The notes below the pieces were generated by a model. It saw nothing but the letters and a program-made list of their open reading frames with translations, was not told where the DNA came from and did no database searches. Shown here piece by piece: positions 4,701 to 18,328 of a stretch of DNA of 64,000 bases. How positions within the stretch are numbered: the first letter of the stretch is position 1; the number at the start of each line of letters is the position of its first letter. The position numbers were made by a program, and so were the translations under genes. Origin of the DNA: Candidatus Segetimicrobium genomatis (GTDB lineage: Bacteria; Sysuimicrobiota; Sysuimicrobiia; Sysuimicrobiales; Segetimicrobiaceae); the NCBI GenBank assembly GCA_005882275.1, contig VBAK01000137.1, positions 5,363 to 69,362 of the forward strand. The letters are read 5' to 3'.

Positions 4701-6152
4701 TCACAGCGCCGTCGGAGAGCCAAGGCTGGCTGCGCCCTGAGGGGATGCCGGGCCCCCAGGTTCGTAAAACAGCACGGCCCGCTGCTCCGTGAGCGCGTGG
4801 TGGACCGCGGCGATGTCCACCCGGCGCGGGGCGACGCCCTCCCGGCAGCTCAGAGCGGCGATCGTGCCGGCCGCGTGCCCGGTCGCCATGCACACGGCCT
4901 GTCCGCGCACGGAGCCGGCGGCCTCATGGGAGGCGGAGATCGCCCGGCCCGCCACGACGACCCCATCGATCTCCGCGGGGACCAGGCAGCGAAACGGGAT
5001 TCCGTACGCCCGCTCGATCCGGCGCAGCGTGACGCCGCCGCCGCCCACCGTCGTCCCGAGCACCTCCGCCCCGGCGTGGACGTCGTGGAGATCCACCGGG
5101 TAGGCCCCGCGGGCGACCGTGTCCGGAAAGTCGCGGCCGGACAGCACGTCGTCGAGCGTCAGCGTGTACCCGCCGAGGATGTGCCGCGTCTCCCTGACGC
5201 CCAGCTGATAGGCGGAGTCGAGCAGCCAGGCGCGCTCGAACCCGGGAACGCGTCGACGGAGGAACCAGAACACTTCGAACATCTGCCGCTGCGTCTCGAT
5301 CTCGGCCCGGCTCACCGCATCAGGATCCGTTCCGTCGACCCCGTGCACCCGTGTGGCGTTGATCGTCACCACCCCGGGAACCGGGCCGGTCTCCACGCCG
5401 ATCCGATCGCGGGGCACCGTCAGCTCCCCGGCGGCGCGCGACCGCGCCACGAGCGACGGGAACGCGTCCATGACCACGGAGGTGGTGCGCAGGTCTTCCG
5501 CCGTGTATCCGGAACCGTCCCAGCGCTCCGGCAGGTCCATCTCCTCGGGGTGCGCCCGCAGGTAGGCGAACATCGTCTCGATGTCGACGCCGGCCACGCG
5601 GAAGATCCGGGTCGCCGGCTGCATGACGCCGTCGCGCCCGCGGCCGAGCACGAATCGGGCGCCCGCCCGCGCCGCAACGTCACCATCGCCCGTGGCGTCG
5701 ACGATCGCCCGCGCGGGCAGGAGCTCGATCCCCGCCTTGTTGGCGAGGACGAGACCCCGTACCCGCCGTTCCTCGACCAGCGCGTCCGCGCAAACGGTGT
5801 GCAGCAGGAACCGCACCCCGGCCTCCACCAGCATCGTGAGGAGCACGTGCTGCAGCGCGAGCGGGTCGGCCACGGTCACCGAGCCGACCTGTTTGTCCGG
5901 GCGATCCGCGAACGCCGCGCCGAGCGTTTGGAGGCGCTCGAACATCTCGGCGCCGATCCCCCCGAGCGCCCGCCGGCCGCCCGCGTCGCTCACGCCGAGG
6001 AACGACATCCCGGTGGACGCCATCCCGCCGACGCGGCCGTACTGGTCGACCAGGAGGGTTCGGGCCCCCGTGCGCGCGGCGGCGATCGCCGCGATTGCGC
6101 CCGCGGTGCCTCCTCCGCAGACCACCACGTCCGCCTCAGCGCGCGTGCGCAT
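4701..6152 (-). CDS. FAD-dependent oxidoreductase (FAD_oxidored/PF12831-like)
   Basis: VVVCGGGTAG dinucleotide fold, IVDATGDGDVAARAG, GVRETRHI, YGIPFRCLVP, GRAISASHEA. Confidence 0.9.
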   Translation of the reverse strand: MRTRAEADVVVCGGGTAGAIAAIAAARTGARTLLVDQYGRVGGMASTGMSFLGVSDAGGRRALGGIGAEMFERLQTLGAAFADRPDKQVGSVTVADPLALQHVLLTMLVEAGVRFLLHTVCADALVEERRVRGLVLANKAGIELLPARAIVDATGDGDVAARAGARFVLGRGRDGVMQPATRIFRVAGVDIETMFAYLRAHPEEMDLPERWDGSGYTAEDLRTTSVVMDAFPSLVARSRAAGELTVPRDRIGVETGPVPGVVTINATRVHGVDGTDPDAVSRAEIETQRQMFEVFWFLRRRVPGFERAWLLDSAYQLGVRETRHILGGYTLTLDDVLSGRDFPDTVARGAYPVDLHDVHAGAEVLGTTVGGGGVTLRRIERAYGIPFRCLVPAEIDGVVVAGRAISASHEAAGSVRGQAVCMATGHAAGTIAALSCREGVAPRRVDIAAVHHALTEQRAVLFYEPGGPASPQGAASLGSPTAL

Positions 6153-6236: not shown

Positions 6237-7679
6237 TCATTCCAGGCGTTCGGGCGATGGCCCGAGACGGCTTAGCAGATCCAGATCGACGCCGAGGGCC
6301 CTGAGCGCGGCCTGGACGGCCCGGACATCGACCTGCCGCGGCGGCGCACCGGCCCGCGCCGCCAGCGCTCCCGCGACGCCGGCGGCGACCCCAGAGGCCA
6401 TCGCGGTGCCCTGGTTGCGGGTGTAGACGTCGGCGTGGTGATCCACGGACAGGCAGCGGCCGGCCACGAGGAGACCTTCGATGTCCCGGGGAACCAAACA
6501 GCGGTATGGGATCTCGTAGACAAACATGCGGGCGATGAGGTGCCGCGCCTCGACGTCCTGCGGTCCGCCCTCCTTGCCGTCCGGAGGGTGGCCGCCCTGC
6601 TGGCGCGGATTCTGCTGGTTGGCGTCGACCCCCACCGCGTCGTCGTAGTGGCGGCCGGCGAGAATGTCGTCCTCGGTCATCACGTACCCGCCCCGGATGC
6701 GGCGTGTCTCGCGGACGCCGATCGTGCTCGCGGAATCGAGGATGAACGAGTGCTCGAACCCCGGGATGTCCCTGCGGGCGAACGCGGCGAGCTGGATCAT
6801 CTGATGCCGGGTTTCGATCTCGGCCCGGGACAGGTCTTCCCCCCTCGTCCCATCGACGCCGTAGACGCGCGTGGCGTTCACGGTGAGCACGCCCCGCTCG
6901 GGCAGCACCGACTCGACCCGGAAGTAGTAACAGTCCGGCCAGAGCTCGCCGCGGACCTTGGCGTCTTCGACCAGCTTGAAGAAGCCGAACACGCGGATCA
7001 TGTGATGGTCGAGGTCCAGCATGCACTGGAGGGGATCGGGCGAGAAGTCGTCGGGATGGGACTTCACGTAGTCGACCAGCCGGGGGACATCGACGCCCCC
7101 CATGCGGAAGATCAGCGTCATGGGCCGCATCTTGCCGTCTTCCTCGCGACCCTTGACGAAGGGGGCGCCCGCGCGGGCGGCTACGTCGGCGTCGCCGCTG
7201 GCGTCGATCGTCACGCGGCCGAGGATGGCCTGGCGCCCCGACTTGTTCTCCACCACGATGCCGCGCAGCACCGCCCCGTCGAGGATGACGTCGCTCACGA
7301 GCGTGTGCAGCAGGACGTTGACGCCGGCTTCCGCCAGCATCTCGAGCGCCGTGATCTTGTACAACTCGGGATCGTAGACGACGAACTCACCCGGGATCGC
7401 CCCGCCCCTGGCGATGAGGCGGTCGAACAACTCGCGCACGAGTCCCCGGGACGCCGCGTACGGGACGTAGAAGAGGTTCATCATCGCGGCGGTGCCCGTT
7501 CCGCCGAGGGATCCGAAGCGCTCGACGAGCAGCGTCGGCGCCCCGCTGCGCCCGGCCGCGAGGGCGGCCATGACGCCCGCGATGCCGCCGCCCACCACGA
7601 GCACGTCCGTGGTCAGCGCCACCGGGATCTCCCGCGCCGGCTCCGCGACCCGCCCGGCCTGGTCGATCACCGCCGCCAC
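6237..7679 (-). CDS. FAD-dependent oxidoreductase (PF12831-like), paralogue of 4701-6152
   Basis: VLVVGGGIAG, IDASGDADVAARAG, GVRETRRI, YEIPYRCLVP. Start set at GTG 7679 after GGAGGT. Confidence 0.9.
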   Translation of the reverse strand: MAAVIDQAGRVAEPAREIPVALTTDVLVVGGGIAGVMAALAAGRSGAPTLLVERFGSLGGTGTAAMMNLFYVPYAASRGLVRELFDRLIARGGAIPGEFVVYDPELYKITALEMLAEAGVNVLLHTLVSDVILDGAVLRGIVVENKSGRQAILGRVTIDASGDADVAARAGAPFVKGREEDGKMRPMTLIFRMGGVDVPRLVDYVKSHPDDFSPDPLQCMLDLDHHMIRVFGFFKLVEDAKVRGELWPDCYYFRVESVLPERGVLTVNATRVYGVDGTRGEDLSRAEIETRHQMIQLAAFARRDIPGFEHSFILDSASTIGVRETRRIRGGYVMTEDDILAGRHYDDAVGVDANQQNPRQQGGHPPDGKEGGPQDVEARHLIARMFVYEIPYRCLVPRDIEGLLVAGRCLSVDHHADVYTRNQGTAMASGVAAGVAGALAARAGAPPRQVDVRAVQAALRALGVDLDLLSRLGPSPERLE

Positions 7680-7772
7680 TGCGACCCACCTCCGCATGCG
7701 CCGGGATGCCTGCCGGCCGCACACCCGCAGGAGACCGTCTGCGGGCCGCGCGCGTCGCGCCGCAACACGCCC

Positions 7773-8925: not shown

Positions 8926-10199
8926 CACGAGGCACGGGGGAACGGCTGGCCATCGACGGCGGCACGCCGGTCCGCACCCAACCGCTCCTGCCCGGCTACC
9001 CGGGCGGCCTGCTGATCGGCGAGGAAGAGAAGGCCGCCGTCATGGAGGTGCTGGACAGCCAGAGCCTGTTCCGCCACTACGGGCCCAGGCCGCTGCGCAA
9101 AGTCGCGCAGTTTGAGCGCGCGTTCGCCCAGGCCGTGGGCGCCCGCCACGCCGTGGGGGTCACCTCCGGCACCGCGGCGTTGATGACCGCGCTTGCCGCG
9201 CTGGGGGTCGGGCCGGGCGACGAGGTGATCGTTCCCACGTACACCTGGGTGGCCACGATCAACGCCGTCGTGCACCTCGGCGCGGTGCCCGTCTTTGTGG
9301 ACATCGACGACAGCCTCACGATGGATCCCGCGAAGCTCGAGGCGGCGGTCACGCCGTGCACGAAGGCGATCCTCCCCGTGCATATGCGCGGCGCGGGGGC
9401 GGACATGGGCCCGATTCTGGACCTCGCGGCCAGGCACCACCTCTACATCGTCGAGGACACGGCCCAGGCGGTCGGCGGGCGCTACCGGGGGCGCCGTCTG
9501 GGGACCCTTGGCGCCATCGGCGCCTACAGCCTCCAGTACCACAAGGTCATCACGACGGGGGAAGGCGGCATGGTCGTCACGGACGACCCGGCGCTCTGGG
9601 AACGCGCCGTCCGGTACCACGACCAGGGGTCGGCCCGCATGGAGGAGCTGGACGAGACGATCCCCGCCGGCAACCCGCTGATGATCGGGATCAACTTCCG
9701 GATGAACGAGATCACGGGCGCGATCGGGCTGGTGCAGCTCGGCCGGTTGGACTGGATCATCGAGCGGATGCGCGCGCACAAGGCGGCGGTCCTCGACGGC
9801 ATGCGGGGGCTGCCCGGCGTGACGATCCGGCGGCTGCCCGACCCGGAGGGGGACACGGGGGCCACGCTGATGTTCTTCCTGCCGACCGACGGGCAGGCGA
9901 GCGCGTTCAGCAAGGCGCTGTCCGCCGAGGGGATTCGCACGGAGGTGGCGTGGAACAGCGGCCAGCACGTGTACTATCATTTCGACCAGATCATCGAGCG
10001 GCGGATGTTCGCGGAGCGTCACTGTTCGTGGGAGTGCCCCTACTACAAGGGGCGCGCGCGACTCGAGAAGGGCATGTTCCCCCAGACGGACGACCTCCTG
10101 CGGCGCGCGCTGCACATCGACCTCCACCCGCTCCTGACGGAGCGCGACGAGTTCGATATCGTCCGCGGGATGCGCAAGGTCGCCTCCGCGCTCCTGTAG
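8922..10199 (+). CDS. DegT/DnrJ/EryC1/StrS PLP aminotransferase
   Basis: TSGTAAL, GPGDEVIVP, IVEDTAQA, YSLQYHKVITTGEGG (PLP Lys), NFRMNEI; ATGA-coupled to the LacI gene. Confidence 0.93.
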   Translation: MTRGTGERLAIDGGTPVRTQPLLPGYPGGLLIGEEEKAAVMEVLDSQSLFRHYGPRPLRKVAQFERAFAQAVGARHAVGVTSGTAALMTALAALGVGPGDEVIVPTYTWVATINAVVHLGAVPVFVDIDDSLTMDPAKLEAAVTPCTKAILPVHMRGAGADMGPILDLAARHHLYIVEDTAQAVGGRYRGRRLGTLGAIGAYSLQYHKVITTGEGGMVVTDDPALWERAVRYHDQGSARMEELDETIPAGNPLMIGINFRMNEITGAIGLVQLGRLDWIIERMRAHKAAVLDGMRGLPGVTIRRLPDPEGDTGATLMFFLPTDGQASAFSKALSAEGIRTEVAWNSGQHVYYHFDQIIERRMFAERHCSWECPYYKGRARLEKGMFPQTDDLLRRALHIDLHPLLTERDEFDIVRGMRKVASALL

Positions 10200-10220
10200 C
10201 CCCGGCGCGCCCGCGCCGCC

Positions 10221-11486
10221 TCACACGCCCCCGGCAGACGCCCGGGGGCCCAGTCCCTCGAGATCGAGGCCCGGCCGCCGGCCCATCACCAGGTCGGCGA
10301 CGGCCCGGCCGGACCCGCAGGCCATCGTCCATCCCATGTGCCCGTGGCCGGTGTTGAAAAACAGATTGGGATGCCGGCCGGCCCCAAGGATGGGCGCGCC
10401 GTCCGGCGTCATCGGCCGGAGGCAGGCCTGATACCGGCCTTCCGCTTCTTCGATCGCGTCGGGAAAGATGTCGCGCGCGAACCGCTTGATATTGTTGAAG
10501 TCCCGGGGCGTCCACCGCCAATCGTATCCGGCGAATTCTGCGGTCGACGTCATCCGGAGCCGGTCACCCTGCCTCGACCAGGCGACCAGCCAGGCTTCAT
10601 CAACCCCGGGGACCGTGGGCGCGAGGCCCCCCTGCTTCAAGGGGAACGTCGACGAGTAGCCCTTGGCCGGATAGATGGAGAGCCGGACTCCCACCGTGCG
10701 GGCCACGATCGGGCTCTGGACCCCGAGGGCCAGCACATAGGCGTCGGCCGCGAGCACGCCGCGATCCGTGACGGCGCCGGTCACACGGCCGCGCTCGGCG
10801 CGCAGCGCCGCGACCCGGGTCCCGGACTGAACGCGCAGGCCGAATTTTTCCCGGCAGGTCCGCTCCAGGCTGAGCGTAAAGAGTCTCGCGTCGCCGCTGG
10901 AATCTCCGAGATCCCGGACGGCCCCGGCGATCTTGTCCTTCACCGGCTCGAAGGCGGGATCGAGCGTCGCGACGCCGGTCGCATCCAGGATCTCCTGGCG
11001 CTGACCGTGCTCCGCCATGAGCGCCATTTTCTTGGCGCCGAGCTCCAACTCGACCGGGTCGCGGTACACGTAGAGCGCTCCCTGCCGGATCGCATGATAT
11101 TCGATCCGCTCTCCGCGCACGAGCTCGGTCAACAATCCCTGACTGTACTGGCACAGGCGGAGCTTGACCAGCGTGCTGCGTCGTGAGCGCTCGGCCGTAC
11201 ACTCGCGCAGAAACCTCAGCCCCCACGTGTACAGCCGGGGGTCCGGCTTGAGTTTGACCCGAATGGCGGTCTCCTGACCGAACAGCGACCGGAACAGCTG
11301 CCGCGGCGCCCGGGGAGAGGCCCATGAGAACGAATGGCCGGTGGCCAGGATGCCCGCGTTGCTCGCGGTCGCTTCCTGTCCGAGTTCCTGGTTCGCCTCG
11401 ACCACGGTCACCTCGCAGCCGTCCTTGGCCAGGTAATAGGCCGTCGTGATTCCCGCGATCCCACCGCCCAGGACCAGCACTCTCAT
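10221..11486 (-). CDS. dadA: D-amino acid dehydrogenase (DadA-like)
   Basis: MRVLVLGGGIAGITTAYYL, ATASNAG, YPAKGYS, CLRPMTPDG, NTGHGHMGWTMACGSG; start ATG 11486. Confidence 0.88.
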   Translation of the reverse strand: MRVLVLGGGIAGITTAYYLAKDGCEVTVVEANQELGQEATASNAGILATGHSFSWASPRAPRQLFRSLFGQETAIRVKLKPDPRLYTWGLRFLRECTAERSRRSTLVKLRLCQYSQGLLTELVRGERIEYHAIRQGALYVYRDPVELELGAKKMALMAEHGQRQEILDATGVATLDPAFEPVKDKIAGAVRDLGDSSGDARLFTLSLERTCREKFGLRVQSGTRVAALRAERGRVTGAVTDRGVLAADAYVLALGVQSPIVARTVGVRLSIYPAKGYSSTFPLKQGGLAPTVPGVDEAWLVAWSRQGDRLRMTSTAEFAGYDWRWTPRDFNNIKRFARDIFPDAIEEAEGRYQACLRPMTPDGAPILGAGRHPNLFFNTGHGHMGWTMACGSGRAVADLVMGRRPGLDLEGLGPRASAGGV

Positions 11487-11614
11487 CGGCCGCGATGCCC
11501 TCCTCCGCCTTAGCGGCGTTGGAGTGATTGCAGATCCGTCCGGCGACTCCCTGCCGCCTGGCATGGAGGCGTGCGCCGGGCGGCGGGGCTCAGCCTCTAT
11601 CTATGGTAGACATC

Positions 11615-11652
11615 TTGACATATAGATATATCACTGCTAAGATATATGTAAA
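11615..11652 (+). promoter_or_regulatory. Near-consensus sigma70 promoter upstream of ssb, inside an AT-rich inverted repeat
   Basis: TTGACA(11615-11620)-N17-TAAGAT(11638-11643) with extended TG; arms TTGACATATA / TATATGTAAA. Confidence 0.75.
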
Positions 11653-11783
11653 AGCAAGAACGGCAACCGGTCGCAGGCCGCTGGCGGCGACGGGGCTGCG
11701 TCGGGCGACCCACCGCGGAGCCTTGACGGCACGGACAGTAATGTTGCGCGAGAGGCAAGCATGCCACACGATGGGGGTGACAG

Positions 11784-12266
11784 GTGTTGAACCGTATTCA
11801 GTTGATCGGGCGTCTCACCCGGGATCCGGAGTTACGCTACGTGTCCAACGGACACCCGATGGCCCAGTTCACGCTCGCGGTTGATCGGGACTTCAAGAAT
11901 GCCGCGGGGGATCGCGAAGCCGACTTCATCAAGTGCGTCGCCTGGAGGAAACTCGCCGAGCAGGTGGGGCAGTACTGCGCCCGCGGCCGTCTCGTGGCGG
12001 TGGAAGGCCGGCTGCAGAGCCGGGCGTACGAGGCCTCGGACGGGGCGCGCCGGCGCGTCACCGAGGTGGTGGGAGACCGCGTCTGGTTTCTCGACAGCCG
12101 GCGGGCCGAGGGCGAGGCCGTCCCCGAAGCCGCCTCCGAAAGCACGGCTGAGGCGGCGCCGGCGGACGGGCAACCTGAGGTGATCGAGGACGCCGAGGCC
12201 TCGCCGGAGGAAGACCATCGAAGTCCGATCGAAGCGAGGAGTAGAACCGAGGTAGGCGAGGAGTAG
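11784..12266 (+). CDS. ssb: Single-stranded DNA-binding protein with a non-canonical C-terminus
   Basis: LNRIQLIGRLTRDPELRY, FTLAVDR, ADFIKCVAWRKLAE, VAVEGRLQSR; acidic tail without the terminal DDxPF tip. Confidence 0.95.
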   Translation: MLNRIQLIGRLTRDPELRYVSNGHPMAQFTLAVDRDFKNAAGDREADFIKCVAWRKLAEQVGQYCARGRLVAVEGRLQSRAYEASDGARRRVTEVVGDRVWFLDSRRAEGEAVPEAASESTAEAAPADGQPEVIEDAEASPEEDHRSPIEARSRTEVGEE

Positions 12267-12276
12267 AACCGAGGTA
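12234..12276 (+). repeat. Perfect tandem 21-bp direct repeat (period 22)
   Basis: GCGAGGAGTAGAACCGAGGTA at 12234-12254 and 12256-12276. Confidence 0.95.
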
Positions 12277-12277
12277 A

Positions 12278-12627
12278 CCCATAATCCCGACGGCCGACCC
12301 GCACGGACGAGGCGCCCACGTGGTGGATGCTTCACACCCCCTCCGAAGCGTCGGGCGTTGTCGCGCCCCCTCGTCCTTGCGGTCGGGCCGCAGCCCGGCT
12401 TGATGGGAGAGTGTCCCTCGCCGTCTGCGGTGTGAAGATATCGTAGTCCCGGCGTCTTCCCCGCGACGCCGGACCCAACCGGATGCTCCCACGCCCCACG
12501 GCGGGTTGCTCCTCCCACGGTCCGCCTGAGTTCTCGCCCGCGAGATTCACCGGTTCACCCATAGGATCCACTCGATAGGGCAACAAGCCGGAGGTACCAC
12601 CGGCCGCGGCCGCCGTGCGGTCGCGGC
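12278..12627. other. Structured intergenic spacer (long imperfect hairpin plus smaller stems); candidate oriT or single-strand signal
   Basis: Nested arms: CCCAT/ATGGG (12278/12403), GGACGAGG/CCTCGTCC (12305/12369), CGCCC/GGGCG, GATGCTTC/GAAGCGTC. Further hairpins at 12449-12472 and 12603-12627. The function is inferred. Confidence 0.45.
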
Positions 12628-12648
12628 TATTCTATTGAAGGAAAGGGG

Positions 12649-13572
12649 ATGATCGAGATGGCGAAGGACCCCGCGGCGGCGCTGATGCGGCTGACCCGGC
12701 GCGATCGCGCGCTGATTGAAGTGCTCGGGGAAGTGCGGTATCTGACGGCGGCGCAGATCCAGCAGGTCTGCTACCCGTCCGCGTCCGCGGACACCACCAG
12801 GCACCGCCTGTCACTCCTGAAAAAGCGCGGGGTCCTGACCTACCTCGCGCACCGGGCGTTTGAGGACCGGCGCGCGTTCTGGGGGCTGTCGCCGGCCGGC
12901 AGGACCGCGGCGGAAGCGGTTGCGGCGGCGGAGCAGGGCGCGCCCGCCGCGGCAGCGCCGCGCGCCGTCGCCGTCGCCGCGCTGCAGATCGAGCATCTCA
13001 TCGCGACCAACCAGGTCTTCTGTGACCTGTGCGGGCAGCACCGGGCGGGCCGGCTGGGCGCCTTCCGGTGGCTCGGCAGCCACCACGCCCAGGTTGATCT
13101 GGAAGACACCCGCCTGGTGCCCGATGCCCTGATCCTGATGGGGACACCCGATGGGGGCGTCTGGATGTACTGCCTCGAGCTCGATCAGGGGACGATGGCG
13201 CCGCTGCAGTTGTCGGCAAAGTTCGCCCGCTACCGCCGCTTCCACGACATCGCGAACCTCCGGCGGGACGAGCCGGTCTGGGGGATCCGGGCGTCGAGTT
13301 GGGTGGTGTTCGCCTGCAAGGATTCCGCGCGTGCCGCATGCGCCGCGCAGCTGGCGGTCCGCGCCGGCCTGGAACGGATATGGGCGGGCACAGCCGCGGA
13401 GGTGGCCGCGGGCCTGGCGGCCTCGGTGGGCCCCGAGACCGTCATCCGGCTCGGGGACCTGCCGCCGGGGCTCACCGGAGGGATCGTCCCTCCGTGCATG
13501 GGCGGTGCGCTGCCGGTGGATGAGCGAGAGACAAGGGATGACCGCGAGACAAGAGAGGAGGGATCTCAATGA
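12649..13572 (+). CDS. Replication-relaxation (Replic_Relax, MOBC-like) family protein
   Basis: N-terminal wHTH-like RLTRRDRALIEVLGEVRYLTAAQIQQ...RLSLLKKRGVL; HLIATNQVF; PD-(D/E)XK-type LVPDALI...CLELDQGTM...KFARY; strong RBS AAGGAAAGGGG. Confidence 0.82.
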   Translation: MIEMAKDPAAALMRLTRRDRALIEVLGEVRYLTAAQIQQVCYPSASADTTRHRLSLLKKRGVLTYLAHRAFEDRRAFWGLSPAGRTAAEAVAAAEQGAPAAAAPRAVAVAALQIEHLIATNQVFCDLCGQHRAGRLGAFRWLGSHHAQVDLEDTRLVPDALILMGTPDGGVWMYCLELDQGTMAPLQLSAKFARYRRFHDIANLRRDEPVWGIRASSWVVFACKDSARAACAAQLAVRAGLERIWAGTAAEVAAGLAASVGPETVIRLGDLPPGLTGGIVPPCMGGALPVDERETRDDRETREEGSQ

Positions 13573-15176
13573 GCCTGAGACAGATCGGTGTGGCCGCGGG
13601 GCTCGGCATCGCCCTCGGCGGCATGATGCTGCTCCACCAGCGTCCGATATTCTGGGTCGATCTTGCCTGCGCGGCGGCGCTCGTCGCGGTCCTCGGCCGC
13701 ATCGGCGCCCGCGCGCGGGTCTACGGTCCGCTGATGGGGGCGCGATGGGCGGGGCGGGCGGACGCCGGCCCGTTGATGACCCCGGGGCCATTCCTGCTCG
13801 GCCTGTGGGGGGAGTCGCGGACCCCGCTGTACCTGACCGAGGAGCGGCTCTCAGGGCACGTCATGGTCGTGGGGCCGTCGAGAAGCGGGAAAACCGCCGG
13901 CGCCATTGCCCCGAACCTCCTCCTTCGGGACCCCGGGCGGGAGAGCATTGTGGTGCTGGACGTGAAGACCGGACCGCGATCGCTCTGGAACGTGACGGCG
14001 GGGCGCTACGGCCCGCGGGCCCGCCTCTTCTGCCCGTTCTTCGAGGAATCCGTCGGGTACAACCCTCTGGCGCGCGTCGATTCGATCGGCGCGGCGCAGC
14101 GGAAGGCCGCGCTCCTCGTGCAGAACACCACGCCCCGCGGCCTTTCGGGGGACGCGCGGGTGTACGCGGCGGCGACCTGCGATCTCGCCGCGCTGTTGTT
14201 CCTCCACGTGCAGCAGGACCGTCCGGCCGGCGGACACACCGTCGGAGCCGTGTACCGGTTGGCGATGGGCGGGCCCGCGCTTGTGCGCGAGGTGCTCAGG
14301 TCCAGCCGGGTCGCCGAGGTGCGGGAGCGCCACGGGATCTTTTCGGCGCGCGAACGCCGGGTGCAGGAGGCCGCCGTGACCGGTGTGCTGGAGCGCCTGT
14401 CGCCGTTGGCGGACCCGCTGGTGGGGGAGGCGACATCGCACGACTTCGACCTCGGCCGGATCGGCCGGGAGCCCACCGCCTTCTACATTCTCCTGCCGGA
14501 GACCGACGGGCCGCGGCTCCAACCGCTCGTCGCGTGGCTGGTCGCCGATCTCCTCGACGAGCTGGTTGAGCAGTCAGACCGCGAGGGCCTCCGCTGCCCG
14601 GTGCGGGTCTACCTCGATGAATTCCGGCAGTTCGGGTATCTCCCCGGGTTGAGCGAGACGCTCCCCACCCTGCGGGAACGGGGCATCAGCGTCCTGCTCG
14701 GCGTGCAGGTGTTGAGCCAGATCGAGGAGATCTACGGGCCGGCCGAGGCCCGCACGTTGCTCGGGAACATGGAGACGAAGCTGCTGTTCCGCGCGGGAGA
14801 TCTTGAGACCGCGCACATGATCAGCGCCTGGCTCGGCCGGACCACGGTGCCGGCGGTTTCGGTGACGACCCGGGGCCGGGACCGCAGCACGACCGTCTAC
14901 CCGTACGTGCGTCCCCTCATGCCGCCCGAGGAGCTCACACGTATTCCGGACGGCGCGGTGATCGCGCTGGCGGGAGCGTCCCCGCCGCTGGCCCTGTGGC
15001 AGGCCCGCTACTTCGCGGTCCGCGGGCTGACGGTCTCGCCTCCTCCGTTTCCGCTCCGCCGCCGCGCGCCCCGCCCCATCGCCGTTGCGGCCCCGCGCGA
15101 GCCCACGCTGTCACCGGCCCGGCGGCCGGCGCCGAGACCGGCCGGCGGGGTGGCGGTTCGGCCGCCGACCGCGTGA
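13569..15176 (+). CDS. Type IV coupling protein, VirD4/TraG family
   Basis: Two N-terminal TM segments; Walker A HVMVVGPSRSGKT; VVLDVK; YNPL; Walker B VYLDEF; GVQVLSQIEEIYG; ISAWLG; RPLMPPEEL; ATGA-coupled to the relaxase. Confidence 0.92.
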   Translation: MSLRQIGVAAGLGIALGGMMLLHQRPIFWVDLACAAALVAVLGRIGARARVYGPLMGARWAGRADAGPLMTPGPFLLGLWGESRTPLYLTEERLSGHVMVVGPSRSGKTAGAIAPNLLLRDPGRESIVVLDVKTGPRSLWNVTAGRYGPRARLFCPFFEESVGYNPLARVDSIGAAQRKAALLVQNTTPRGLSGDARVYAAATCDLAALLFLHVQQDRPAGGHTVGAVYRLAMGGPALVREVLRSSRVAEVRERHGIFSARERRVQEAAVTGVLERLSPLADPLVGEATSHDFDLGRIGREPTAFYILLPETDGPRLQPLVAWLVADLLDELVEQSDREGLRCPVRVYLDEFRQFGYLPGLSETLPTLRERGISVLLGVQVLSQIEEIYGPAEARTLLGNMETKLLFRAGDLETAHMISAWLGRTTVPAVSVTTRGRDRSTTVYPYVRPLMPPEELTRIPDGAVIALAGASPPLALWQARYFAVRGLTVSPPPFPLRRRAPRPIAVAAPREPTLSPARRPAPRPAGGVAVRPPTA

Positions 15177-15350
15177 GCCGGTTCAGCCGAGGTCTAACCC
15201 CCCCGCCGTCTTCGATGACTCTCACAGGCAAAACCGACCCCTCGTGGAAGCAACAGGATGGTGTAAATAGTCTAGTCCTAAGGGAGGCATGGTCACAGGA
15301 GACTATGCGGATTGTCGTGAGGGCGTCGCCTCCCAGAGGAGGAGGATGAC

Positions 15351-15545
15351 ATGCGAGTCTTCTTGGCGATCCTCGGCGGAGCGATGATGATCGTCGGCGT
15401 GGTCTGGTTTCTTCAAGGCATTCGCGTCATTCCCGGAAGTTTCATGACCGGGTCGACCTTCTGGGCTGTTGGGGGCGCGATCGTCGCCCTCGGCGGATTT
15501 GTGATTCTCCGGGCCGTGCGTGCGGGAGCACCGCGGTCGGCGTAA
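15351..15545 (+). CDS. Small two-TM membrane protein
   Basis: Strong SD AGGAGGAGG; hydrophobic 64 aa with GVVWFLQG...PGSFMTG pattern. Confidence 0.8.
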   Translation: MRVFLAILGGAMMIVGVVWFLQGIRVIPGSFMTGSTFWAVGGAIVALGGFVILRAVRAGAPRSA

Positions 15546-15620
15546 TGCGCCGTGTGGTGATCTGACGCCGAACGCGGCGGCCGGAGGAGACGCCCCCAGC
15601 GCGGAGAACCCGACCTGGGC

Positions 15621-16409
15621 ATGTGGGTGGACGCGCATCTGCATCTGGACGCCCCCGAGTTTGACGCCGACCGCGAGGCGGTGATCGCTCGAGCCATCGC
15701 GGCCGGCGTGGGGTTGATGGTGTCCGCGGGAACGTCCGTTGAGGGCAGCCGGCGCGCCGTGGCGCTGGCCGAGCAATATCCCAACGTGCGGGCCGCGGTC
15801 GGGATCCACCCCTCGGCCGCCGGGGATGCCACGCCCGGCGGGTTGGACGCGCTCGCTGCGCTGGCCCGCCATCCCCGCGTCCTGGCGGTCGGCGAGGTCG
15901 GGCTCGATTACTATCGAGAGGGGGTCGAGCGCCGGCGGCAGATCGACGCCTTCCGCGCGCAGATTCGGCTGGCGCGTGAGGCGGACCTGCCGCTGGTGGT
16001 GCACGATCGGGAAGCGCACGCCGATGTGGACCGGATCCTGGAAGAGGAGGGCGCCACCAAGGTCGTCCTGCACTGCTTCACCGGGACGCCCGAACGGGCG
16101 CTGCGCTGCGCGGCGGCCGGGTGGATGCTCTCGCTCGCCGGTCCGGTGACCTTCGCGAATGCCGGCGCGCTGCGGGAGGTGGCGAAGCGCATTCCCATCG
16201 ACCACCTGCTGCTGGAGACCGATGCCCCCTATCTGGCTCCGGCGCCGGTGCGGGGACGCCGGTGCGAGCCGTCGTTCCTGGTGCACACCGCTTGCCTCGT
16301 GGCCGCGGTGCGGGAGATGGACGGCGACGCCCTCGCCTCGCGTATCGGAGACAATGCCAGACGAATCTTCTCCGTTGATGGATCGCCGGAGCGTCCGGCG
16401 GGACGGTGA
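15621..16409 (+). CDS. tatD: TatD-family hydrolase/DNase
   Basis: DAHLHL, AVGIHP, GEVGLDY, VVHDRE, LHCF, LLETDAPY. Confidence 0.95.
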   Translation: MWVDAHLHLDAPEFDADREAVIARAIAAGVGLMVSAGTSVEGSRRAVALAEQYPNVRAAVGIHPSAAGDATPGGLDALAALARHPRVLAVGEVGLDYYREGVERRRQIDAFRAQIRLAREADLPLVVHDREAHADVDRILEEEGATKVVLHCFTGTPERALRCAAAGWMLSLAGPVTFANAGALREVAKRIPIDHLLLETDAPYLAPAPVRGRRCEPSFLVHTACLVAAVREMDGDALASRIGDNARRIFSVDGSPERPAGR

Positions 16410-17106
16410 TCCACGCCCCGGGCCTCATCGAGCCCTCGCGTGGGGGCTCGCGATTGGCGCCGTCTATCTCGGCGTGGTCGTGTTCTCGTGGCCTCCCACC
16501 GTCCGACTGCTCTACGACGGGTTGGTCCCCCTCCCGCCGTACCGATGGGTGACTCCGCCGCCGGAACGGGCCAACGACAATCAACCTCCCCGGCCTGGCG
16601 CGGACACACTCGTGTTGGGCCCTCAGGGATCGCCCGCCGCCGAGGTCGCGACCGAAGATGATCAGGCCCTGGTCACCTTTCCCGCGGCGGCGCTGGCGCC
16701 GCGGCCGGGTGAGTCATCGGTGAAGGTCAGACTCACCCCGTTAGACCCGCTTGCTCTCGGCACCGTCCCGGCGGGCCGCCGGTTCGACGGGAACGCCTAC
16801 CGGATCGAGGCCACCTACGCCGCTTCCGCGGCCCCGGTCGTCCTCACGGCACCTGTGACCGTGGTCCTCCGCTACCCGGCGCACGCGACGCTTCTGCTCC
16901 GGGCTCAAGACGCCGGGTGGCAGGTGCTCCACACGACGCGCTTCGATGGAAGCCAGCAGGTGCTCGCTCCTGCGAACGATCTGGGGGTCTTTGTCGCCGC
17001 CTCGCCGTCGGCACGCCGGGGCACGCCCACGGCGGCGAGGCGGTCTCTCGCGGGCGGCTTCCTGCTCGCGGCGATCCTGACCGCCCTGGCGGCGCGGTGG
17101 AGATGA
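16378..17106 (+). CDS. Hypothetical membrane-anchored extracytoplasmic protein
   Basis: N-terminal hydrophobic stretch, LYDGLVPLPPYRWVTPP, beta-rich middle, C-terminal TM plus basic tail (LAGGFLLAAILTALAARWR). Start uncertain. Confidence 0.65.
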   Translation: MDRRSVRRDGDPRPGPHRALAWGLAIGAVYLGVVVFSWPPTVRLLYDGLVPLPPYRWVTPPPERANDNQPPRPGADTLVLGPQGSPAAEVATEDDQALVTFPAAALAPRPGESSVKVRLTPLDPLALGTVPAGRRFDGNAYRIEATYAASAAPVVLTAPVTVVLRYPAHATLLLRAQDAGWQVLHTTRFDGSQQVLAPANDLGVFVAASPSARRGTPTAARRSLAGGFLLAAILTALAARWR

Positions 17107-17182
17107 GCCGCTCGCCGCTGTGGACTCTAGATGTGAGTCGTGGCGGATCCCGATCGGGGGAGAGTATAATGAGAATCGAGCG

Positions 17183-18328
17183 ATGAGCCGATCTCACAGC
17201 ACCTCGGGACCGATTCGCAGGGTGGGCGTTGCCTTCGTCGGGATCGCGATCTGCGGACTCCTTCGCAGTCCCCCCGCCGTCAGCGCAGATGAGACCGCCG
17301 ACGAGATCCGGCTCGGCGCGCAGATCGCCAAGGAGATCGAGTCTCACTATAGGGTCGTCACCGATCCGGCCATGGTCGACCGGCTTGCGCGCGTGGGGGA
17401 TGCGCTCGTCCCGGTCGTGGACCGCAAGGATCTGACGTATCATTTCCGGGTCATCGACATCCCCGGGGTGAACGCCCTGGGCGTCCCGGGTGGATGGGTC
17501 TACGTCACCCGCGGCATGATGAAGTTTGTGCGCTCGGACCACGAGCTGGCGGCGGTGCTGGCGCACGAGCTGACCCACGTCGCCCACCGGCATTACTACA
17601 TCCAGCAGGCACGGGAAAGCCGCATGGCGCCGGCGCTCATCATCGCGGCGGCGCTGTCGGTGCTCGCGCGTTCCGCGGCGCCCATCGTTGGCGTCTCGCT
17701 CGCCACTCAGGGGGCGATGGCAAACTACCAGCGCGATCTGGAGAAAGAGGCCGATCTTACGGGAATCTCCTACCTGACGAAGACAAGCTACTCTCCCGTG
17801 GCGATGCTGACCCTGATGGAGCACCTCGCCCAGGCGGATAAGCTGACCGGCCGCCCGGATCTGGGCCCGCTCTACCAGGACCACCCCGTGCCGGACGAGC
17901 GGGTCGACTATATTCGCGACGCTCTGATCGCGCGGGGCTTTCCCATCGTGCGCCGGATCCCGGAGGGGTATCTCAAGATCACGCTCGATCCGCCGGACGG
18001 GTCGGACGGGCAGCCGGTCACGGTGCTGGTGGACGGGCGGCCGATCATCCGGCTGGGCGCAACCGTGGCGGGCGAGGACCCCTCCCGCCGCGCCCATGCG
18101 CTGGCGGCTAGGCTCAATGCTTTCTTCAACACCGACCCCGCGCCGTACGATGTCCGCGATGTGATCTCTCCGGGCCGGTGGACCGTCATTGGCGGCCAGA
18201 CGCAGTTGTTCGAAGTCACCACGGAGGACGCTGCGTATGCGAACGGCTCTCCCAAGGCCGTGGCCGAGGGGCTGCGGGCCCGGTTGGCCGAGGCGCTGGC
18301 CGAAGCCCCGTACTATAGGAAGTTTTAA
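17183..18328 (+). CDS. M48-family zinc metallopeptidase
   Basis: Signal peptide; VNALGVPGG, ELAAVLAHELTHV (HExxH), EKEAD, HP; TATAAT at 17165-17170. Confidence 0.92.
   Translation: MSRSHSTSGPIRRVGVAFVGIAICGLLRSPPAVSADETADEIRLGAQIAKEIESHYRVVTDPAMVDRLARVGDALVPVVDRKDLTYHFRVIDIPGVNALGVPGGWVYVTRGMMKFVRSDHELAAVLAHELTHVAHRHYYIQQARESRMAPALIIAAALSVLARSAAPIVGVSLATQGAMANYQRDLEKEADLTGISYLTKTSYSPVAMLTLMEHLAQADKLTGRPDLGPLYQDHPVPDERVDYIRDALIARGFPIVRRIPEGYLKITLDPPDGSDGQPVTVLVDGRPIIRLGATVAGEDPSRRAHALAARLNAFFNTDPAPYDVRDVISPGRWTVIGGQTQLFEVTTEDAAYANGSPKAVAEGLRARLAEALAEAPYYRKF

Follow-up and report, generated by a model that had tools for sequence, protein, structure and literature searches.

A predicted MOBC relaxase and its coupling protein at a vertically inherited chromosomal locus of an uncultured soil lineage

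Relaxase and coupling-protein pairs are treated as markers of mobile elements, and genome scanners score them as signatures of plasmids, integrative and conjugative elements (ICEs) or integrative and mobilizable elements (IMEs). Pairs in which a MOBC relaxase is accompanied by its own type IV coupling protein (T4CP) are already known from CloDF13, pAD1-like plasmids, streptococcal IMEs and Bacillus phages. In the sections of PMC3424549 and PMC12857230 that deal with them, MOBC relaxases are defined by a PD-(D/E)XK residue pattern, and the latter text places MOBC origins of transfer (oriTs) near the relaxase gene, with the nick site (nic) apart from the binding repeats. A passage on CloDF13 describes its T4CP as also aiding relaxation (PMC7431656). 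Here we describe a three-gene locus, hereafter the trio, in a window of 64,000 nucleotides (the whole stretch of DNA that was analyzed) from Candidatus Segetimicrobium genomatis (GCA_005882275.1, contig VBAK01000137.1, positions 5,363 to 69,362, forward strand). The trio consists of a paralogue of the gene for single-stranded DNA-binding protein (SSB), named ssb2, a Replic_Relax/MOBC-type PD-(D/E)XK relaxase gene and the gene for a VirD4-type coupling protein, T4CP1, and it lies in the core chromosome. What is unusual is its status, that of a single-copy, syntenic, co-diverging and constrained core locus of a whole family. The relaxase/T4CP pair here behaves like a housekeeping locus, with a complementary secretion machine conserved elsewhere in the genome.

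The trio locus and its inheritance

The source genome (G000) is a metagenome bin of 3.70 Mb in 200 contigs (92.95% complete, 5.89% contamination, GC content 0.69), and the window is part of its 74-kb contig C83. In the comparison collection the phylum is represented by 94 species genomes of one order and seven families, with G000 and 22 others making up its own family. A profile of 36 homologues finds the relaxase gene in single copy in 21 of these 22 genomes, once in G000, and in none of the 71 genomes of the six other families. A search with the relaxase protein likewise gives one strong match per genome in 21 of 22, with identity dropping from 91% to 47% with taxonomic distance, and no match in 18 genomes of other families. 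Two relatives also carry a second, divergent Replic_Relax gene, 27-29% identical to that of the window (G006:C520:23794-24585 and G018:C15:872-1657).

Gene order is kept along with the genes. Among the 20 loci tabulated for synteny (G014 was left out), T4CP1 stands directly 3' of the relaxase gene in every one, and genes for TatD, an M48 peptidase and ComB come next in all 14 loci that extend past T4CP1. On the other side, 18 loci have 1 kb or more of upstream sequence, and in all of these but G008, G009 and G016 the neighboring gene is ssb2 (15 of 18); synteny stops upstream of ssb2 except in the two closest relatives. No integrase or transposase domain was found among 50 proteins encoded upstream of the trio in 13 relatives.

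The trio evolves under the same constraint as its neighbors. Nei-Gojobori estimates of the ratio of nonsynonymous to synonymous substitution rates (dN/dS), taken between G000 and six congeners, were 0.06-0.26 for ssb2, 0.18-0.33 for the relaxase gene and 0.11-0.22 for T4CP1; the corresponding values were 0.19-0.29 for tatD, 0.11-0.28 for the M48 gene, 0.12-0.21 for the ComB gene and 0.05-0.08 for a GT2 gene. Synonymous divergence, which reaches ~1-2, is matched between the trio and its flanks. In 13 genomes, a tree of relaxase plus T4CP1 and a tree of TatD plus M48 plus ComB have all supported clades in common; they disagree only over G011, whose position has no support in either tree. Contigs from four soil metagenome DNA runs of four studies, covering 9500-17500, gave no credible excision or deletion joint, which is weak evidence; contig depth is similar over trio and flanks, and the joints listed have sides of 20-25 letters and low depth, except for one with a side of 99 letters, which skips 105 nt within the spacer between ssb2 and the relaxase gene. 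Together, these comparisons establish that the trio locus is vertically inherited and has been selectively maintained since the ancestor of one family, across six genera.

We considered whether the trio might be what is left of an ancient ICE or IME, decaying, without a function today and preserved only by chance. The lack of an integrase, the separation of the relaxase and T4CP genes from the genes of a type IV secretion system (T4SS), damage to T4CP1 in two relatives (G005 and G019) and the absence from two others (G003 and G004) of R1, a conserved element described below, would all suit a remnant. Set against these are dN/dS values that stay at the level of flanking housekeeping genes (0.06-0.33 for the trio) at this synonymous divergence, intact frames with catalytic and Walker residues invariant across six genera, congruent trees, and a locus that occurs once, with its gene order kept, in 21 of 22 genomes. 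We therefore regard a remnant as extremely improbable, and the trio as very probably a domesticated, functional MOBC relaxase/T4CP module. No integrase, transposase or Rep gene was found among the window ORFs or the neighbor proteins of 13 relatives, nor any att-like repeat around the trio, and the synteny and vertical inheritance of the trio set it apart from a mobile replicon or bounded island of the CloDF13 or IME type. Nor is it an ICE, since the T4SS-like genes of this genome lie on another contig (C175), where no integrase was found among the ORFs scanned.

A preliminary description of this DNA, made from the sequence alone, had pointed to three co-oriented, apparently intact genes behind a strong promoter, between 'dadA' and tatD, with an ATGA overlap joining the relaxase and T4CP genes and with host-like GC content. 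This holds, the name 'dadA' being putative. The three open reading frames (ORFs) are intact and on the plus strand, the promoter is the only match to its pattern in 4.3 kb, and the flanking genes encode a DAO-type FAD oxidoreductase and TatD (Table 1). The relaxase stop and T4CP1 start do overlap as ATGA, and GC content at third codon positions in the trio genes (0.82, 0.87 and 0.90) lies inside the range of the neighbors (0.78-0.94). Its statement that the window holds no VirB4, VirB6, integrase, transposase, rep gene or flanking att repeats was borne out as well: Pfam profiles for integrase, transposase, plasmid Rep, VirB4 and VirB6 families gave no match among the 51 distinct window ORFs, and a repeat search found no att-like direct repeats bracketing the trio, only imperfect pairs of 14-33 nt with 70-93% identity. 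The suggested protein families were recovered in profile searches (PF13814 at 85.6 bits, PF02534, PF12696); the likeness drawn to the CloDF13 arrangement of a MOBC relaxase with its own coupling protein agrees with the relevant part of PMC7431656; and the proposal of a domesticated module fits the synteny, single copy, purifying selection and congruent trees across six genera. The locus is neither strain-specific nor under relaxed selection, and its relaxase does match Replic_Relax.

That match covers relaxase residues 25-200 and positions 3-177 of the 191 in the PF13814 profile (E 5.9e-24, cut-off 25.3 bits; 86.9 bits in the whole-genome scan), and PF13814 is the family that CONJscan calls MobC, according to the part of PMC5357655 that treats it. 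Six residues, D159, E177, D179, K191, R194 and Y195, are invariant in 36 of 36 relaxase sequences, as are H116 and T120-N121, with E28 nearly so. We take the catalytic residues to be equivalent to D152, E170, E172, K176, R180 and Y181 of pAD1 TraX. In the AlphaFold2 model (predicted local distance difference test, pLDDT, 83.7) an N-terminal winged helix is followed by a C-terminal alpha/beta domain. A wide structure search with residues 111-262 places the PD-(D/E)XK nucleases Cdn1, Bax1, BstEII, Cfr10I and PspGI in its top rows (Z 7.1-7.7), and residues 1-72 resemble winged helices of the ArsR/MarR/Lrp type at a middling Z of ~6-6.7. Judged from its sequence, the protein is a MOBC-type PD-(D/E)XK relaxase with an intact and invariant active site, and is predicted to nick DNA.

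A tblastn search of 72,556 plasmid records (PLSDB) with the relaxase returned no match at 1e-3, and the 66 homologues found at E ≤1e-5 in a word-indexed protein collection, 49-100% identical, all come from metagenomes or bins. A profile search of 1.84 billion representative proteins recovered three full-length clusters at 418, 345 and 310 bits, the next standing at 94 bits; it found 7 proteins at 1e-30, 76 at 1e-10 and 1179 at 1e-3. T4CP1 matches 2430 plasmid records, all below 60% identity, the maximum being 30.8% among the 15 matches listed. The relaxase-T4CP1 pair is a closed and deep-lying branch of the families it belongs to, which fits a long stay in a single lineage. In the main texts of the open-access literature searched, we found no prior description of a fixed, vertically inherited relaxase-coupling-protein module.

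T4CP1 matches PF02534 (E 3.4e-49, 168.4 bits), PF12696 (5.1e-27, 94.7 bits) and PF10412 (6.2e-19, 68.6 bits), and reaches 169 bits against NCBIfam conju_CD1115, under the equivalog cut-off of 250. It has a Walker A motif, GPSRSGKT, at residue 102 and a Walker B motif, VYLDEF, at residue 347, which are conserved in the orthologue alignment as GPSRxGKT and YLDEF. Both motifs are intact in 11 of 13 orthologues evaluated (G011 and G018 were left out), the exceptions being G005 and G019. A hydrophobic segment at residues 25-47 (Kyte-Doolittle, 19-residue window >1.6), with a weaker stretch at 6-22, suggests from hydropathy that T4CP1 is membrane-anchored. Its C-terminal tail, R..P.P.GGV, is also conserved.

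We modeled T4CP1 and the relaxase as a complex, which scored 0.68 when the best of three controls scored 0.00. Of 80 solved complexes, 58 attained the mark used for this score, as did 2 of 110 mismatched pairs; these rates are rough here given that our own alignments were used. Contacts agree by at least 69% between runs, and partner pLDDT is at least 74. The predicted interface lays T4CP1 residues 516-533 on relaxase residues 164-174 and 216-260, and includes residues invariant in both alignments: R518, P522, P524, G526, G527 and V528 of T4CP1, and W172, Y174, W245, G247 and L256 of the relaxase. The invariant tail of T4CP1 is thus predicted to dock on the relaxase, by a model and not a measurement. 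We are aware of no solved structure of a MOBC relaxase with its T4CP, so the score probably does not stem from a structure memorized by the predictor.

T4CP1 is a frequent point of breakage in assemblies. Three bins (with contig ends in G002, G006 and G007) stop at residues 493-505, shortly ahead of the conserved tail, three further bins end in T4CP1 at residues 129-239, and unitigs of three soil runs end at window position 15065. The breaks around 15054-15084 suggest strain variation or an assembly-graph repeat. A defense system was considered for the trio and rejected: PADLOC has no match for ssb2 or the relaxase gene, and for T4CP1 gives only a weak P-loop match to mad8 (2.2e-11).

The first gene of the trio encodes an SSB domain with an oligonucleotide-binding (OB) fold (PF00436 E 1.7e-33, 115.2 bits; TIGR00621 125.5 bits, cut-off 53.95). 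G000 has two SSB genes, the housekeeping copy standing in an rpsF-ssb-rpsR-DUF2232-rplI cluster on contig C169. The acidic C-terminal tip of SSB, ..(I/V)PF, recruits partner proteins. The housekeeping protein ends in ..SSDEDVPF; SSB2 lacks the ..PF tip and ends in ..RSRTEVGEE, and the tails of its orthologues are acidic and also without PF. Because SSB2 is 67% identical to the housekeeping SSB over 107 residues of the OB fold, it is, on sequence grounds, a lineage-internal paralogue of the host gene that has lost the canonical PF tip, and not obviously foreign. At the 3' end of ssb2, 12225-12268 is an imperfect tandem duplication of 22 nt (82% identity), which may explain the longer C-terminus of SSB2 in G000 (160 aa, as against ~143 aa in several relatives). 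The promoter upstream of ssb2 is consensus-like with an extended -10 (TTGACA-17-TGcTAAGAT) and lies inside an AT-rich island; its pattern matches once in 11400-15700, with 0.2 matches expected from shuffles, and a similar promoter stands 5' of ssb2 in G001 and G012.

The rest of the window encodes core metabolism, including leucine/isoleucine-valine and histidine biosynthesis, the tricarboxylic acid cycle and NADH dehydrogenase, and the tRNA gene closest to the trio is 5.7 kb downstream. Between T4CP1 and tatD lies a hydrophobic 64-aa ORF (15351-15545) with no Pfam match, conserved (89%) in G005 only; at this position most other relatives carry an additional FAD oxidoreductase gene (375 aa). 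An ORF between tatD and the M48 peptidase gene (16159-17106) has no Pfam match either and is 50-92% conserved in relatives; its listed start overlaps the end of tatD, and the true start is probably later. Further upstream, 4701-6152 and 6237-7724 are adjacent paralogous FAD_oxidored genes (PF12831, 42% identical) of ordinary metabolism, and the pair adjoins a creatininase-family gene and a LacI-type regulator gene.

The R1 element

No conserved ORF was found between ssb2 and the relaxase gene. The spacer holds R1, a block of ~100 nt kept across genera whose proteins share only ~50% identity. R1 folds as a three-way junction (z-score -3.4 as RNA or DNA) whose central hairpin bears an invariant C-rich loop, CCCCCTCC. 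An alignment of 14 genomes predicts 29 pairs, 10 of them with compensatory changes, and paired cells amount to 95.5%, compared with 43-53% with slid partners. None of 500 shuffles reaches the observed covariation, a control that kinship among the sequences can inflate. The preliminary description had offered all of 12267-12648 as the candidate cis region; a candidate site does lie within this spacer, in the form of the discrete R1 at ~12293-12394 and not of the spacer as a whole.

A search with a covariance model of R1 yields a single copy in G000 and in each of 19 of the 22 family genomes; the 18 genomes searched from other families gave none. Wherever R1 and the relaxase gene share a contig, R1 lies just 5' of the gene, as it does in G009 and G016 despite the lack of an adjacent ssb2; G011 and G019 have their copy on a contig other than that of the relaxase gene. 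Between R1 and the relaxase start lie ~90 to ~430 nt of unconserved sequence, depending on the genome. A terminator-like hairpin stands directly before the relaxase ribosome-binding site (Table 1), with a hairpin of different sequence at the same place in G001, and in G012 a second strong promoter lies between ssb2 and R1. With filters off, the model found no copy at the trio loci of G003 and G004 or at the C175-type loci of G000 and G001 (best 14.9 bits, E 0.21). Rfam returned only two chance rows for 11400-12800 at E up to 5, to microRNA and long noncoding RNA families, far below gathering scores.

Two readings of R1 have to be weighed. The first is that R1 is an oriT rather than an RNA leader, and we put it forward tentatively, as a candidate. 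The second, possible though somewhat more doubtful, is that R1 serves the relaxase-T4CP1 operon as a cis-regulatory RNA leader, whose anti-Shine-Dalgarno-like loop, CCCCCUCC, may act via the hairpin or the ribosome-binding site. In every case R1 stands on the sense strand, 3' of a promoter, and it tolerates G-U pairs (in 8 of 14 sequences at one pair), which makes the fold specific to the sense strand; these properties suit an RNA leader as well as an oriT. A leader would further agree with the terminator-like hairpin before the relaxase ribosome-binding site in G000 and G001, and with a loop that, read off the sequence, is complementary to GGAGG-type ribosome-binding sites. Its variable distance from the gene and unconserved spacer would be unusual for a translational leader, and it belongs to no Rfam family. 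Further, hairpins of a transferred DNA strand can covary too, and the position near the relaxase gene is that described for MOBC oriTs in the portion of PMC12857230 on these sites. A search for TraX-like binding repeats beside R1 gave only two-copy families of 8-12 nt, which are unconvincing. In pAD1, nic is reportedly inside a large inverted repeat. If R1 is an oriT and its hairpin is that of the transferred strand, the plus strand would move, with the relaxase-T4CP1-tatD side first.

A second locus and the proposed export route

The second match to PF02534 in G000 lies in a cluster on contig C175 (L050:1256-13763) that encodes T4SS-like proteins and a second coupling protein, T4CP2 (Table 1). 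Its VirB4/TraC-like protein is not detected by a search with PF03135 (CagE_TrbE_VirB). T4CP2 is without the R..P.P.GGV tail and, by reading of its sequence, has HKT replacing GKT in Walker A. A core of five genes stands in the same order across family members and in three genomes from outside the family; the VirB4-like gene occurs in 18 of 22 family genomes, and T4CP2 has a strong match in 17 of 22. The flanks are chromosomal and partly syntenic, with glycogen genes, a LonC-like gene and a GGDEF-EAL gene.

Several details of the cluster stand on their own. The PIN/antitoxin-like genes look like a toxin-antitoxin pair inserted into it; in G001, only ~0.5 kb separates the VirB6-like and T4CP2 matches, and the PIN query finds nothing there. 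For the two C175 proteins without a named family, the closest unnamed clusters of the protein atlas come mostly from Deinococcota. G011 has a second VirB4-like gene on contig C11 (35-38% identity), and this gene and the extra Replic_Relax genes of G006 and G018 are probably strain-specific mobile elements.

No relaxase was recognized in the C175 cluster, and profiles for six other relaxase families (PF03432, PF03389, PF08751, PF02486, PF01076 and PF07514; MOBP, MOBQ, MOBF, MOBT, MOBV and MOBH) gave no match in G000, which is 93% complete. Because the only recognizable relaxase is at one locus and the only recognizable channel at the other, the trio and C175 loci are complementary. The preliminary description had presented the module as stand-alone, in the company of no T4SS. 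That part does not stand: VirB2-, VirB4- and VirB6-like genes, a possible VirB10-like gene and T4CP2 are clustered on C175, and 18 of 22 relatives have such a cluster. Because a conserved T4SS-like cluster is present in the same genome, neither the outside helper nor the unknown channel invoked there is needed.

We propose the following route. The relaxase would bind via its winged helix and nick one strand at or near R1, and SSB2 would coat the displaced single strand. T4CP1, holding the relaxase by its conserved C-terminal tail, would pump the DNA. The channel would be the family's own T4SS-like machine at the second chromosomal locus, made up of VirB2-, VirB4/TraC-, VirB6- and possibly VirB10-like proteins with T4CP2. 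Chromosomal single-stranded DNA would thereby leave the cell, and would either enter a recipient in the manner of an Hfr (high frequency of recombination) strain or be released to the outside. The trio could in this way bring about Hfr-like mobilization of the flanking chromosome. For the full chain, a domesticated and split conjugation-like system exporting host DNA, we find the balance to be even; that the trio works through the C175 machine we advance tentatively, at slightly short of even. Rather unlikely, in our view, is the most extended form of the idea, in which R1 is the chromosomal oriT of a family-wide core-genome conjugation apparatus, comprising the MOBC relaxase, T4CP and SSB together with a minimal VirB2/B4/B6/B10-like channel and T4CP2, that is selected for host chromosomal transfer as a domesticated Hfr-like sexual system and not as a selfish element.

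A number of observations tell against the proposed route. Every genome compared is a metagenome bin, and the estimated contamination of G000 is 5.9%. In G017, the best assembly (96% complete, 20 contigs), the trio is intact and R1 is present, and two queries found no VirB4-like gene or T4CP2; because of this genome, the link from the trio to the C175 machine is not obligatory. Among the 71 genomes of other families, 6 have the VirB4-like cluster and no trio (by family: f5, 2/34; f6, 1/1; f2, 2/22, at 33-34% identity; f7, 1/1; f4, 0/12; f3, 0/1). G014, G020 and G022 have no P-loop_TraG match, being fragmentary or, for G020, without the trio too, and G010 has channel genes without T4CP2. As members of a single family, the genomes do not count as separate samples, and the joint presence in them of two unlinked loci proves little. 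In G005 (L017:6563-8089), T4CP1 has lost 27 residues and has a D-to-A change in Walker B (YLAEF), and in G019 (L027:7565-9174) it is split into two overlapping ORFs; these lesions may be real single-lineage decay or bin assembly error, and the housekeeping gene tatD is likewise split in G022. R1 was not found in G003 and G004, though both keep the trio. At the level of structure, relaxase residues 111-262 match restriction-endonuclease-fold nucleases at a middling Z of 5.8-7.7 (<8), and Foldseek with the relaxase model gave no match in the PDB at E 0.001 or better.

The case of G017 bears on an alternative in which the trio is domesticated and T4SS-independent, having been repurposed for processing or translocating single-stranded DNA (for instance in release across the cytoplasmic membrane, in repair or in segregation) with no T4SS or with an unrecognized channel. 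It would also explain why the trio and the C175 cluster are unlinked and differ in distribution outside the family, and Bacillus phages hold pairs of a MobC-like relaxase and a T4CP without a full T4SS, as the pertinent section of PMC3357382 reports. G017 is, however, a single case and a draft, and 18 of the 22 family genomes do have the T4SS-like cluster. That this cluster is without its own relaxase, and that G000 has no other relaxase family, makes the two loci complementary, and we know of no VirD4-type ATPase that moves DNA across an envelope alone. We consider T4SS independence unlikely.

G017 would also be accounted for if the trio were a chromosomal hitcher, that is, a fixed mobilization unit with oriT, relaxase and its own T4CP, as in CloDF13, that uses the T4SS of visiting plasmids or ICEs and mobilizes the host chromosome. 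MOBC1 mobilizable plasmids bring their own T4CP and use a helper T4SS even without the helper's T4CP, at least in the account given in part of PMC7431656, and some relatives carry the divergent, strain-specific-looking VirB4-like or Replic_Relax genes noted above (G011:C11, at 35% identity, G006:C520 and G018:C15). Occasional helpers would hardly sustain purifying selection for so long throughout the family, and the conserved T4SS-like cluster that already resides in the genome, without its own relaxase, is the simpler partner. This makes a hitcher distinctly unlikely, and export through the resident machine remains the reading we prefer.

If functional, the two loci would be a candidate host-owned system for DNA export or chromosome exchange in an uncultured soil lineage. 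The ~100-nt candidate oriT, the invariant relaxase active site and the predicted interface between the T4CP1 tail and the relaxase offer handles for tests. The locus also calls for caution in the mobile-element annotation of metagenome bins.

Table 1. Features of the trio locus (window positions) and of the cluster on contig C175 (rows in gene order)
Feature	Position	Strand	Basis
DAO-type FAD oxidoreductase, left flank	10221-11564	-	PF01266, 2.2e-63
Sigma-70-type promoter, TTGACA-17-TG-n-TAAGAT	11615-11643	+	Promoter scan
ssb2, 160 aa	11784-12266	+	PF00436, TIGR00621
R1 three-way-junction element; paired core ~12299-12382	12293-12394	+	14-genome alignment, covariation
Terminator-like hairpin	12602-12628	+	Hairpin scan; weak T-tail
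MOBC-type relaxase (Replic_Relax), 307 aa	12649-13572	+	PF13814
T4CP1, VirD4/TraG-type coupling ATPase, 535 aa	13569-15176	+	PF02534, PF12696, PF10412
TatD, right flank	15621-16409		Pfam, 8.9e-79
Possible TrbI/VirB10-like protein, 420 aa	C175	-	Lead only: protein-atlas features 0.94, 25/30 hits in family set
TrbC/VirB2 pilin, 107 aa	C175	-	PF04956, 32.3 bits (cut-off 27.9)
VirB4/TraC-like ATPase, 840 aa	C175	-	P-loop_TraG, 93 bits; TraC-F-type, 180.8 bits full-length, under equivalog cut-off
Protein of no named family, 349 aa	C175	-	Between VirB4-like and VirB6-like genes
VirB6/TrbL-like membrane protein, 367 aa	C175	-	Weak, E 8.4e-4
PIN/antitoxin-like pair	C175, L050:5925-7075	-	PIN domain; C-terminal part of upstream ORF Phd/YefM-type-like
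T4CP2, second coupling protein, 758 aa	C175	-	31% identical to T4CP1
Helicase, 848 aa	C175	-	Passes NCBIfam TIGR03817 'helicase/secretion neighborhood'

Comparison with known systems

CloDF13 (MobC and MobB, MOBC1) resembles the trio in that a non-HUH MOBC relaxase is paired with its own membrane-anchored T4CP, apart from the mating-pair machine. CloDF13 is a small mobilizable plasmid of Enterobacteria, whereas the trio is a single-copy part of the core chromosome, vertically inherited throughout the family's history; the trio also includes a paralogue of SSB and shares its genome with a conserved T4SS-like locus, and its relaxase is without a PLSDB match at 1e-3.

TraX with oriT2 of pAD1, the prototype MOBC relaxase of Bacillota, has the combination of winged helix and PD-(D/E)XK domain that is predicted for the relaxase here, the conserved acidic, Lys and Arg-Tyr residues, and a cis site near its gene, going by the passages on TraX in PMC12857230. 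The sequence relation between the two relaxases is at the Pfam family level only. TraX is encoded on a conjugative pheromone plasmid beside a full T4SS, unlike the trio, and it binds five direct repeats 70-120 bp from nic; a comparable series was not found beside R1. Streptococcal IME_Class_8 (MobC, VirD4 and a serine integrase) is alike in being a compact chromosomal relaxase/VirD4 pair in a Gram-positive-type lineage, as set out in part of PMC5357655. These IMEs are strain-variable islands with a serine integrase; the trio, in contrast, is fixed and syntenic, with no integrase in the window or in the neighborhoods of 13 relatives.

The 'DNA translocation operon' of the Bacillus phages 0305phi8-36 and SPO1 also places a MobC-like relaxase beside a VirD4-like ATPase outside any plasmid (PMC3357382, in the section on this operon). 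There the setting is a phage genome and the ATPase often has no transmembrane domain, whereas here the host is cellular, the ATPase has a predicted membrane anchor and the genome also encodes a T4SS-like cluster. The gonococcal genetic island is variable and has a MOBH relaxase, and Helicobacter ComB is without a T4CP or relaxase. Both are alike to the proposed system in that a T4SS serves the host's own DNA traffic, by DNA secretion for the gonococcal island (PMC6736028) and by DNA uptake for ComB (PMC12857230). Unlike either, the system described here has a MOBC relaxase and two T4CPs distributed over two conserved, family-wide loci. Its further unusual traits are a host-derived SSB paralogue, a dedicated cis element, a predicted interface between coupling-protein tail and nuclease, and a T4SS-like second locus that has no relaxase of its own.

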